Of a stretch of 20,339 nucleotides of DNA, positions 18,592 to 20,339 are shown in pieces. The position numbers were made by a program, and so were the translations under genes. This DNA comes from Nitrososphaeraceae archaeon (lineage in GTDB: Archaea > Thermoproteota > Nitrososphaeria > Nitrososphaerales > Nitrososphaeraceae), in the NCBI GenBank assembly GCA_035250975.1, contig DATFEP010000021.1, forward strand, positions 1-20,339, written 5' to 3'. Position 1 is the first letter of the stretch. Each line of letters starts with the position of its first letter. Below the pieces are notes generated by a model that worked only from the letters and a program-made list of their open reading frames with translations, was not told where the DNA came from and did no database searches.

Positions 18592-20199
18592 ATGGCCAAG
18601 GATCCAGAGAAGACAAATTTAAAAAGTTTAGCTGTGATAAAGAAGATGGGATTTGAACCTAAAAAAATTTGTGCCAATCTATCTGTGCCAGAATTAGTAG
18701 AATTTGCAGTCATACGTAAAGAAGCTAATATGTCCTCAACAGGAGCCTTATCTGTATTTACTGGAAAATTTACTGGAAGATCCCCGGATGATCGATATAT
18801 TGTTGAAGATAATATAACTAAAAAAAATATTAATTGGGGAAAAGTGAATCATCCAATTTCAGAACAGAATTTTGATAAAATATTTGAGCGAATGAAAAAG
18901 TTTGTAAGAAACAAGGAATTATTCTTATTTAATGGATATGTAGGAGCAGATGAAGAGGCAAGGTTTCCTGTAAGTGTAATTACAGATAAAGCATGGCAAT
19001 CTCTTTTCGCTAACCAAATTTTGATAAAATCAAAGCAAAATGAATTAAAAAATTTTTCACCGAAATTGGTTCTCTTTTCTTTAAATGATTTTAAAGGGAT
19101 GCCGAAAAAAGATAAAACTGAGTCAGAAACATTCATTATTATTAACTTAAAAAAGAAGATTGTTTTAATAGGATCCACTTCGTATGCTGGAGAAATAAAA
19201 AAATCGATATTTTCTGTTATGAATTATTTCTTACCTGCAAAAGACATTTTTCCTATGCATTGCTCTGCAAATGTTGGTAAAAATGGAGACACTGCACTAT
19301 TCTTCGGATTATCAGGAACTGGCAAAACAACGTTGTCTGCTGATTCTGATAGATGTTTGATTGGAGATGACGAACATGGATGGTCCGCAGATGGAATATT
19401 CAATTTTGAGGGAGGATGTTATGCAAAATGCATAAACCTGAAAAGGGAAACAGAACCACAGATCTGGAACGCAATAAAATTTGGATCAGTTATGGAAAAT
19501 GTCATTATTTCAAATAATAAAAGGGTACCCGACTTCAGTGACAATTCATTAACGGAAAATACCCGTGTTGTATATCCTTTAGAATTCATACCACGTGCAG
19601 TAATACCTAGTGTAGGTAATCATCCAAATGTGATAATTTTTCTTACTGCTGATGCTTTTGGGGTATTGCCACCCATCGCAAAATTGACAAAAGAAGGAGC
19701 AATGTATCATTTTATGTCTGGCTATACCAGTAAATTAGCCGGTACTGAAAGAGGAATTACAAAACCCAAAGAAACCTTTTCCCAATGCTTTGGTGCACCA
19801 TTCATGCCCCTGCATGCTATGAGATACGCAGAAATGTTAGGACGAAAAATGACCGAGCACAATTCAAGAGTATATTTGATTAATACTGGATGGCATGGGG
19901 GTCCTTATGGGATAGGCAAGAGGATTGATCTTGGATATACGAGAGCAATGGTGACCAATGCCATAAGTGGAGAAATAGATAAATGTTCATTTAAATTACA
20001 TCAAATTTTCAATTTCCAGATTCCAACATCATGTCCGGGTGTACCTGACGAGCTACTTGATCCCAGTCAAACATGGAAAGATAAAAAAGATTACAATATT
20101 GCAGCTAGGAAATTAGCAAGATTATTCACACAAAACTTTGAGAAATTCGGGCGACTATCTAAAGAAATTGTTGATGCTGGTCCAAAACCAGATGTATAA
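18592..20199 (+). CDS. pckA: Phosphoenolpyruvate carboxykinase (ATP)
   Basis: TGRSP, YAGEIKKS, MHCSAN, FGLSGTGKTTLS, LIGDDEHGW and NFEGGCYAK. Confidence 0.98.
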   Translation: MAKDPEKTNLKSLAVIKKMGFEPKKICANLSVPELVEFAVIRKEANMSSTGALSVFTGKFTGRSPDDRYIVEDNITKKNINWGKVNHPISEQNFDKIFERMKKFVRNKELFLFNGYVGADEEARFPVSVITDKAWQSLFANQILIKSKQNELKNFSPKLVLFSLNDFKGMPKKDKTESETFIIINLKKKIVLIGSTSYAGEIKKSIFSVMNYFLPAKDIFPMHCSANVGKNGDTALFFGLSGTGKTTLSADSDRCLIGDDEHGWSADGIFNFEGGCYAKCINLKRETEPQIWNAIKFGSVMENVIISNNKRVPDFSDNSLTENTRVVYPLEFIPRAVIPSVGNHPNVIIFLTADAFGVLPPIAKLTKEGAMYHFMSGYTSKLAGTERGITKPKETFSQCFGAPFMPLHAMRYAEMLGRKMTEHNSRVYLINTGWHGGPYGIGKRIDLGYTRAMVTNAISGEIDKCSFKLHQIFNFQIPTSCPGVPDELLDPSQTWKDKKDYNIAARKLARLFTQNFEKFGRLSKEIVDAGPKPDV

Positions 20200-20201: not shown

Positions 20202-20237
20202 GTAGCCCGGAGCAGATTCGAACTGCTGTCTCCAGGT

Positions 20238-20251
20238 TTCTTCTCAGAGAT
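20238..20251 (-). other. tRNA intron 3, 14 nt, canonical position 37/38
   Basis: CUCU(32-35)/GAAG central helix with a C34-A mismatch; bulges GG^A and AA^A; removal restores a 7-nt anticodon loop. Confidence 0.82.
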
Positions 20252-20267
20252 CCAGAGCCTGAAATCC

Positions 20268-20285
20268 CTAGCCCTACCAAGGAGT
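20268..20285 (-). other. tRNA intron 2, 18 nt, position 21/22
   Basis: GGCU/GGCU central helix (2 G-C plus 2 G-U); bulges AA^A and AG^G; removal restores the D-loop AGCGGCTAA and the GGAT D-stem strand. Confidence 0.82.
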
Positions 20286-20297
20286 TTAGCCGCTAGA

Positions 20298-20329
20298 TTC
20301 GGCATCAGCCATCTCAAGGAAAACTGATT
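20298..20329 (-). other. tRNA intron 1, 32 nt, position 10/11
   Basis: CGGU(5-8)/GCCG 4-bp central helix; CG^A bulge; 7-bp intron helix AUCAGUU/GGCUGAU; 3' junction AA^U. Confidence 0.88.
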
Positions 20330-20339
20330 CGACCGGGCT

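Follow-up and report, generated by a model that had tools for sequence, protein, structure and literature searches.

An intron between nucleotides 10 and 11 of archaeal tRNA-Gln and a leader element that may stand in for the acceptor strand

The window described here is the whole of contig C79 (positions 1-20339, 20,339 nucleotides) of genome G000, from a soil ammonia-oxidising archaeon of the Nitrososphaeraceae (2.49 Mb in 91 contigs; completeness 94.6%, contamination 2.6%). Its last 137 nucleotides hold, on the minus strand, a tRNA-Gln(CUG) gene in which a 32-nucleotide insert separates G10 from U11. The locus raises the question of whether this insert is an intron and, if it is, from which fold it could be cut, given that the exon nucleotides with which it can pair also belong to the acceptor stem of the mature tRNA.

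The insert between G10 and U11

Read on the minus strand from the contig end, the gene begins with AGCCCGGTCG, continues with the 32-nucleotide insert AATCAGTTTTCCTTGAGATGGCTGATGCCGAA and then with TCTAGCGG, and finishes with ...GCAGTTCGAATCTGCTCCGGGCTA. It carries three inserts; once these are removed in silico, 73 nucleotides are left, which ARAGORN identifies as tRNA-Gln(ctg), and with intron 1 kept ARAGORN makes no call. The pair A1-U72 and the discriminator A73, which are typical of archaeal tRNA-Gln, are read directly from the gene. The parts that concern intron 1 are the following.

20203..20339, minus strand: tRNA-Gln(CUG) gene, 137 nt; A1 at 20339 is the contig end and the discriminator A73 is at 20203 (ARAGORN after in-silico removal of the inserts)
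20330..20339, minus strand: exon 1, nucleotides 1-10 (AGCCCGGTCG)
20298..20329, minus strand: intron 1, 32 nt, between G10 and U11 (from orthologues without the insert and from covariation)
20332..20335, minus strand: C5 G6 G7 U8, which form the 5' strand of helix H, the 4-bp helix at the centre of the motif; in the mature tRNA, C5-G7 are also partners of 66-68 in the acceptor stem
20300..20303, minus strand: GCCG of the intron, the 3' strand of helix H, kept as RCCR amid an otherwise variable intron
20322..20328, minus strand: ATCAGTT, the 5' strand of the inner helix h', which starts 1 nt past the 5' splice site (RNAfold of the inner part)
20304..20310, minus strand: GGCTGAT, the 3' strand of the inner helix h'

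The gene was compared by BLAST with 61 genomes (G000 and 60 relatives), and 47 orthologous genes were parsed, including genes from 20 further stretches. Eight of these, which belong to other families of the order, are without an insert and read continuously AGCCCGGTCG-TCTAGCGG (GGTCG-TCTAG, with GGTGG-TCTAG in two). The other 39, the window gene among them, have an insert of 15-37 nucleotides at the same site. Because the window insert starts and ends with A and the intron-less orthologues read uninterrupted, the junction can lie only between G10 and U11, and the predicted spliced product is the sequence of the intron-less orthologues. The initial annotation, made from the window alone, had placed a 32-nucleotide intron at 20329..20298 between these two nucleotides; it was exact in coordinates and letters, which the eight intron-less orthologues now fix.

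The 39 inserts follow a constant plan: C5 G6 G7 U8, the unpaired N9 G10^A (the caret marking the splice site), a hairpin, RCCR, and A R^U11. Helix H, in which four intron bases face C5-U8, is fully paired in 35 of the 39 and has an A opposite C5 in the other four, so that the complementarity first proposed for GCCG (20303..20300) and C5 G6 G7 U8 (20335..20332) extends to the orthologues. The sequences of the hairpin helix h' are diverse yet paired (ATCAG/CTGAT, ACCTG/CAGGT, ATTGATC/GGTCAAT and GAC/GTC, among others). Among 105 distinct introns, 937 of 1005 pair cells (93%) hold standard pairs, compared with 25-38% when the 3' partner is slid by 1-2 nucleotides, and the 5' bulge N9 G10^A and the unpaired 3' triplet A-R^U11 are each present in 105 of 105. 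Helix h' covaries: two-sided changes occur at all three of the h' pairs counted in 27 aligned UUG genes, and six pair types are found at h'2 in the 105 introns. For helix H, 100% of the cells are paired in the 27 UUG genes and the sole change is one-sided, from U-G to U-A; only the 47-gene set is unbiased for this helix, as the search pattern preset G6-C and G7-C in the pattern-derived set.

In bulge-helix-bulge (BHB) motifs, the splice sites lie after the second nucleotide of 3-nucleotide bulges. The insert has a central helix of 4 bp, splice sites positioned in bulges, a helix h' inside the intron, and a canonical tRNA as the product of its removal. It does not have the strict hBHBh' form, since C4, C3, G2 and A1 cannot pair with nucleotides 12-15. 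No conserved outer helix h was found by eye between nucleotides 1-4, or the spacer, and nucleotides 11-16, where there are only genus-specific 3-bp matches (AGA with UCU); the latter were rejected as an outer helix because they are not conserved beyond the genus. Nucleotides G2-C4 could pair with G18-G19-Y20, all of these bases being invariant. The weak outer helix of A1G2 with C12U13 that had been suggested for the window falls away, as G2-C12 is not conserved and position 12 is G in UUG genes with the same intron; the accompanying view that the motif is relaxed and not a strict BHB is upheld by the lack of a real outer helix. Since no outer helix is conserved, the motif is assigned to the relaxed HBh' or bulge-helix-loop (BHL) class. 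Intron 1 is probably a genuine intron of the archaeal splicing endonuclease (EndA), BHB-type and of this relaxed HBh'/BHL class, located at G10/U11 of tRNA-Gln and cut from the C5-U8/RCCG fold. G000 has two open reading frames (ORFs) with an EndA domain (PF01974; open frames of 188 and 132 aa, with 101 and 74 bits), and these would be consistent with an endonuclease of the broad-specificity alpha/beta type. The genome also encodes the RtcB ligase and RNase P RNA.

The gene was found by BLAST in 54 of the 61 genomes, with 24/24 in the genus and 35/36 in the family. A pattern scan of one genome per species gave at least 118 stretches, with at least 83 complete tRNA-Gln genes by a regular expression; the remaining 35 of the 118 listed stretches are chance bacterial matches or incomplete genes. 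The complete genes listed come from Nitrosocosmicus (including Ca. N. agrestis strain SS), Nitrososphaera, Nitrosopumilaceae, Bathyarchaeia and 'Sifarchaeum'. When the phylum was sampled evenly, 15 of 401 genomes matched the strict pattern and the reversed-pattern control gave 0; the strict pattern under-counts, as it misses the UUG gene of G000 itself. The 10/11 intron is old and is shared by both isoacceptors, tRNA-Gln(CUG) and tRNA-Gln(UUG).

The tRNA-Gln(UUG) gene of G000 (L003; contig C12, about 48571-48671, minus strand) has, by eye, a 28-nucleotide intron at 10/11 with the hairpin GGGAAAA/TTTTCCC and with GCTG opposite C5-U8; its leader has GCCCGGA, and there is no further intron. Non-canonical inserts also occur elsewhere among the tRNA genes of G000, in the D-loop (by eye Arg-CCU, Asp-GUC and Glu-UUC) or in the T-loop (C89:10170-10270, C88:4500-4620, C40:11749-11850, C89:172310-172400 and C61:9348-9470), and the Rfam tRNA model matches several of these loci only partly. 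None of these other insert-bearing G000 tRNA genes has an insert at 10/11.

Competition with the acceptor stem and the leader element

Because the 5' splice site lies after G10 in a 3-nucleotide bulge, the exon strand of the central helix must be nucleotides 5-8. In the mature tRNA, C5, G6 and G7 pair with G68, C67 and C66. Helix H and the acceptor pairs 5-7/66-68 both need C5-G7 and cannot coexist, as the initial annotation had recognized, so that cleavage of the intron should require a conformer whose acceptor stem is at least partly open. In nearest-neighbour models of the precursor without its leader, the H fold is never more stable than the acceptor fold (0/104 genes; median +5.5 kcal/mol), which makes a non-cloverleaf and probably co-transcriptional conformer a reasonable substrate for cleavage. 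The cleavable fold would comprise the 4-bp helix C5-U8/RCCG, the 5' bulge N9 G10^A, the hairpin h', and the 3' site A R^U11 in an open junction. The simplest conformer to be cut would be a hairpin formed once the first 45-55 nucleotides have been transcribed. Cleavage before closure of the acceptor stem and before the action of RNase P, as first suggested for the window, is plausible and is backed by a conserved element in the leaders of these genes.

This element, an imperfect copy of the acceptor 5' strand just upstream of A1, is complementary to the 3' acceptor strand; in the window, where A1 is the contig end, there is no leader. Genes of the genus have gtAGCTCGaga, UUG genes GCCCGGa or GTCCGGc, and Bathyarchaeia AGCCCGGaa. 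G000 has a second copy of the tRNA-Gln(CUG) gene (G000:C89:506-643, L002), which is of the nearest-relative type and has a 28-nucleotide intron 1, and its element is located as follows.

L002:644-655, minus strand: leader copy of the acceptor strand in the C89-type gene (others lie in the leaders of L006-L198)

A contiguous helix of at least 6 bp between the 20 nucleotides upstream and nucleotides 66-73 is present in 103 of 110 distinct intron genes and in 1 of 8 intron-less genes, and shuffled leaders give a mean of 4.3. Two of the seven misses (L106 and L139) are parsing artefacts in which the copy abuts A1, and L087, L038 and L107 are three of the others. None of 29 other tRNA genes of G000 reaches a helix of 6, the maximum being 5. 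Across 105 elements, the core positions 2-6 read G-Y-Y-C/U-G and pairing is kept in all 105, the sole variation being C or U opposite G70, G69 or G68; the edges of the element are free to vary, and 1-19 nucleotides, mostly 1-5, separate it from A1. For the Nitrosopumilaceae-like family f13, 22 tRNA-Gln(UUG) genes were compared, taken from the 22 genomes, out of 46, that match a 3'-half pattern. Sixteen of these genes have the intron, 14 with a helix of at least 6 and two with a copy one base shorter, and 0 of the 6 intron-less genes have the element, in genomes that are related and not independent. The leader element is coupled to the intron.

TATA-like blocks (...CAAATATC... in CUG genes and ATTATAA in UUG genes) end about 30 nucleotides upstream of A1. 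In the CUG genes of the family (L006-L037 and others), the block GATAAAATCAAATATCGG extends from about 48 to 31 nucleotides upstream of A1, and UUG genes have ATTATAA(G/A)G at a similar distance. Judged by sequence, these conserved blocks are probably TFB-recognition (BRE) and TATA elements. The usual archaeal spacing from TATA to start is about 26 nucleotides, and by this spacing only, transcription would start at or just before the leader element. A promoter reading in other tRNA genes of G000 was dropped, as these are too AT-rich for confident placement of a TATA element.

If so, a 6-7-nucleotide copy of the acceptor 5' strand would stand at the head of the transcript, AGCUCG for the CUG type and GCCCGG or GUCCGG for the UUG type. 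It would pair with C66/C67-C71/U72 as a surrogate stem, and helix H would thereby be protected from displacement by the 3' strand for as long as the intron is present. The true 5' strand would then take over, and RNase P would remove the leader. The pairing of the leader with the 3' strand and the order of these events are inferred, and the chance that the leader copy acts as a stand-in strand in splicing is put at about even. The fuller proposal, that a cis-acting mimic enforces an order of 'splice first, then RNase P' and is kept or lost with the intron across Nitrososphaeria, Bathyarchaeia and an Asgard-labelled metagenome-assembled genome, is a tentative one.

Folding energies bear on the stand-in strand differently in the two isoacceptors. 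Of 39 UUG genes, 37 favour helix H together with the stand-in stem over the acceptor fold (median -3.4 kcal/mol), and helix H has a mean pair probability, P(H), of 0.75 when the native leader is present, which falls to 0.14 when the leader is shuffled and to 0.00 when it is left off. Most CUG genes, the type found in the window, do not favour it. The initial annotation had called for folding of the precursor, and the expected fold prevails with the leader in nearly all UUG genes, fails to do so in most CUG genes, and never does so when the leader is left off.

A number of observations weigh against a stand-in strand or against the fold from which the intron is thought to be cut. For the CUG genes, helix H with the stand-in stem lies at a median of +2.9 kcal/mol relative to the acceptor fold and wins in 8 of 65, and P(H) comes to 0.03 whether the leader is native or shuffled; the effect of the leader is only partial in these genes, which have two introns besides intron 1 and whose copy is weaker and includes a G-U pair. 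Two genes of one clade, L038 and L107, have the intron and truly have no element, the element of L087 is at least 17 nucleotides upstream, and L049 has kept the element without the intron. A transcription start 3 or more nucleotides further downstream would leave the element incompletely transcribed. On the exon side of helix H, as in the 3' acceptor strand, there is no variation, so that two-sided covariation is impossible for helix H and for the stand-in helix. The RNAalifold consensus of 27 UUG precursors keeps the ordinary acceptor stem and pairs RCCG with C16-G18-G19-Y20 of the D-loop (22-27 of 27 per pair). With the leader kept on precursors spliced in silico, the true and stand-in stems are about isoenergetic, which neither supports nor opposes a switch and is counted on this side. 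The same applies to the metatranscriptome contigs: six rows hold part of L002:380-780, and the four examined gave five contigs, all unspliced, with no joints and no listed starts or ends. Because exon 1 is only 10 nucleotides long, too short for scoring a joint, the missing spliced contigs are uninformative, and these data neither support nor oppose splicing. One RNA contig, X16 (153 nt), extends from 13 nucleotides past the tRNA 3' end to 7 nucleotides upstream of A1, and other RNA contigs run further upstream; the ends of contigs do not mark RNA ends, and X16 carries no information on the transcription start.

Leader copies are also seen in two CUG genes that have no intron 1. In L049 the copy AGTCTGGA is next to A1. 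In L043, AGCCCGG lies about 21 nucleotides upstream and is followed by GGGCT, and the two could fold into a small acceptor-like hairpin. These copies may be remnants after loss of the intron.

Alternative readings and the contig end

The alternative that survives best accepts that the intron is real and is cut from C5-U8/RCCG and holds that the leader copy is idle in splicing, being a promoter or initiator element or a slowly decaying duplication, with the BHB motif forming co-transcriptionally or being captured by EndA. This is a possibility to be taken seriously, although it falls short of an even chance. It accommodates the CUG genes, in which a native leader has no advantage over a shuffled one in the equilibrium model and the H fold remains the less stable, and it accommodates the intron without the element in L038 and L107 and the element without the intron in L049. 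The transcription start was placed by spacing, and the element lies at a fixed distance from the TATA-like block, as a promoter or initiator element would. An idle element is harder to reconcile with a sequence that is GC-rich within AT-rich leaders and specific to tRNA-Gln (0/29 other tRNAs), that varies in its core only by C or U opposite G in 105 of 105, that has been gained or lost together with the intron inside one family, and that keeps its complementarity to the 3' strand while its distance to A1 ranges from 1 to 19 nucleotides.

A second alternative leaves the acceptor stem closed and has EndA cut another structure, such as RCCG paired with CGGY of the D-loop, or places the junction at 9/10. 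The RNAalifold consensus, which keeps the acceptor stem and engages RCCG with the D-loop, speaks for such a reading, and introns that end in G give the same product at 9/10 as at 10/11. It is nevertheless very unlikely. When RCCG is paired with the D-loop, the splice sites have no 4-bp helix between them and the structure is neither BHB nor BHL; the D-loop pairing is broken at one pair in 5 of the 27 precursors, and C5-U8/RCCG is paired in 100% of the same set. The window intron, for its part, ends in A, and only a junction at 10/11 yields the sequence of the intron-less orthologues. The RCCG/D-loop pairing, which puts no 4-bp helix between the sites, is read as a predicted non-productive competitor of the C5-U8/RCCG fold.

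That the insert is no functional intron and belongs to a pseudogene or to an assembly artefact at the contig end is hardly credible: the gene does stop just where the contig stops, it shares a body of 100% identity but flanks of only about 77% identity with G018, and standard tRNA finders miss it, but the same intron with compensatory changes is present in more than 100 distinct genes of many genomes, the C89 copy, of the type of the closest relatives, has the intron too, and an intron-less tRNA-Gln(CUG) was not found in G000.

The contig end itself probably joins two strains. In the two nearest genomes, G016 and G019 (94-95% identity), the gene for phosphoenolpyruvate carboxykinase (PEPCK), the tRNA gene and the region upstream of it form one locus, and in G000 that locus is divided between the end of C79, which is the window, and C89 from position 506. 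The window tRNA body matches that of G018, a genome different at the species level, in 137/137 nucleotides, with flanks about 77% identical to G018, and the trailer and the PEPCK flank of the window match G016 and G019. Additionally, the RNA-library contigs X15, X16 and X17 (three runs from three studies) join the PEPCK end of the window to the C89-type tRNA. The last 137 bases of the window are thus probably a cross-strain join. Because both the window copy and the C89 copy carry the intron, the intron finding stands.

The remaining parts of the gene are given here.

20286..20297, minus strand: exon 2, U11-A21 (TCTAGCGGCTAA)
20268..20285, minus strand: intron 2, 18 nt, in the D-loop at about 21/22 (by-eye comparison with orthologues)
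20252..20267, minus strand: exon 3, G22-G37, with the anticodon CTG (gene L111 has the uninterrupted loop CTCTGGA)
20238..20251, minus strand: intron 3, 14 nt, at the canonical site 37/38
20203..20237, minus strand: exon 4, A38-A73, with CCGGGCT (66-72) at 20210..20204

The presumed central helix of intron 2 pairs GGCU (18-20a) with a GGCU of the intron and includes two G-U pairs. A GCTA repeat blurs the junction of this intron by a few nucleotides; gene L106, which has no intron 2, reads AGCGGCCAA-GGAT. Convergent with the tRNA-Gln gene is the gene for an ATP-dependent PEPCK (18592-20199, plus strand; PF01293, 724 bits). Its stop codon ends 3 nucleotides before A73, which places the tRNA trailer opposite the end of the PEPCK gene, in antisense.

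In the raw window, ARAGORN finds 0 tRNAs and Rfam 0 at its gathering threshold. The Rfam tRNA model, run over the whole genome, covers no more of the window gene than its 3' part, at 18.4 bits against a cut-off of 29, and with E values up to 10 it aligns only the 3' part of the C89 copy, at 18.9 bits. Because standard tRNA finders miss the gene, genomes of this clade can seem to be without tRNA-Gln(CUG).

Relation to known tRNA introns and leaders

Taken alone, the intron is ordinary in kind, and its site is awkward. It means that an archaeal tRNA can retain, for a very long time and in two isoacceptors, an intron whose removal fold excludes the acceptor stem. The statements below about published work refer to the portions of each source that were available. 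A review lists the non-canonical sites 20/21, 22/23, 25/26, 29/30, 30/31, 45/46, 53/54, 56/57 and 59/60 'etc.' and treats 3/4 as an 'extreme case' (PMC4090602); other papers name only the D-arm or acceptor-stem region and give no exact site. tRNAscan-SE 2.0 has an intron model specific to Thaumarchaeota and counts 107 non-canonical introns there, and many D-arm insertions in Asgard tRNAs are reported to be missed by tRNAscan-SE (bioRxiv 10.64898/2026.10.13.758758). The available portions of PMC4090602, PMC4033280, PMC8450103, PMC3082918, PMC3293823, PMC4390854, PMC3218864, PMC12397907, PMC5829648, PMC3239211, PMC2237900 and bioRxiv 10.64898/2026.10.13.758758 contain no statement on a 10/11 intron or a leader copy. 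Literature searches, in which the string '10/11' is not searchable, found neither, and the accessible parts of the literature searched on archaeal tRNA introns and leaders hold no description of a stand-in strand device. The initial annotation had regarded the position as unusual. This is borne out insofar as 10/11 is missing from the positions in the available text of PMC4090602, and it is offset by the finding that the intron is common in public genomes, including that of a named Nitrosocosmicus strain. The intron belongs to a known kind, and its site, though seldom discussed, is not unseen; the intron is probably in tRNA databases already, and the intron tables of tRNAscan-SE 2.0 may well list the site.

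The relaxed HBh'/BHL class has been described for archaea with (alpha-beta)2 endonucleases (PMC5829648, PMC3239211), and Thaumarchaeota are stated to have an (alpha-beta)2 EndA (PMC4090602, PMC5829648, PMC3239211). Like the relaxed BHB introns described in these three papers, intron 1 has a 4-bp central helix, a 3-nucleotide bulge cut after its second nucleotide, an intron hairpin h' and a degraded bulge or outer helix; its host genome has two EndA-domain ORFs. Unlike those in PMC4090602, it lies at 10/11, and the exon strand of its helix consists of acceptor nucleotides 5-7 and U8. The 3/4 intron of some Thermoproteales tRNAs (cited in PMC4090602) resembles it in that the splicing motif must use acceptor-stem nucleotides, but differs in position, lineage and tRNAs.

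The leaders of split and permuted archaeal tRNAs (PMC4390854, PMC3218864) offer a likeness to the leader element, since flanking RNA that is not part of the tRNA pairs to enable the BHB motif and is then discarded. Those leaders themselves form the BHB; the tRNA-Gln leader would instead bind the 3' acceptor strand as a competitor and so leave the true 5' strand free. The Asgard D-arm insertions (bioRxiv 10.64898/2026.10.13.758758) share with intron 1 their D-arm location, relaxed motifs, occurrence in genes with several introns, and the failure of standard callers. The Asgard census reports recent and repeated gains, whereas the tRNA-Gln intron is common to two isoacceptors and several classes; the word 'leader' is missing from the text of that preprint.

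If the leader copy does act in splicing, it would be a simple encoded device that orders splicing before 5' trimming, and a stand-in strand would explain the persistence of introns near the 5' end of a tRNA. Attenuators work by competition among four RNA segments. By analogy, the leader copy (segment 1) would compete with the true 5' strand (segment 2) for the 3' strand (segment 3), and segment 2 could alternatively pair with RCCG of the intron (segment 4). Unlike an attenuator, in which the outcome is termination of transcription, the tRNA-Gln leader would determine the order of RNA processing.

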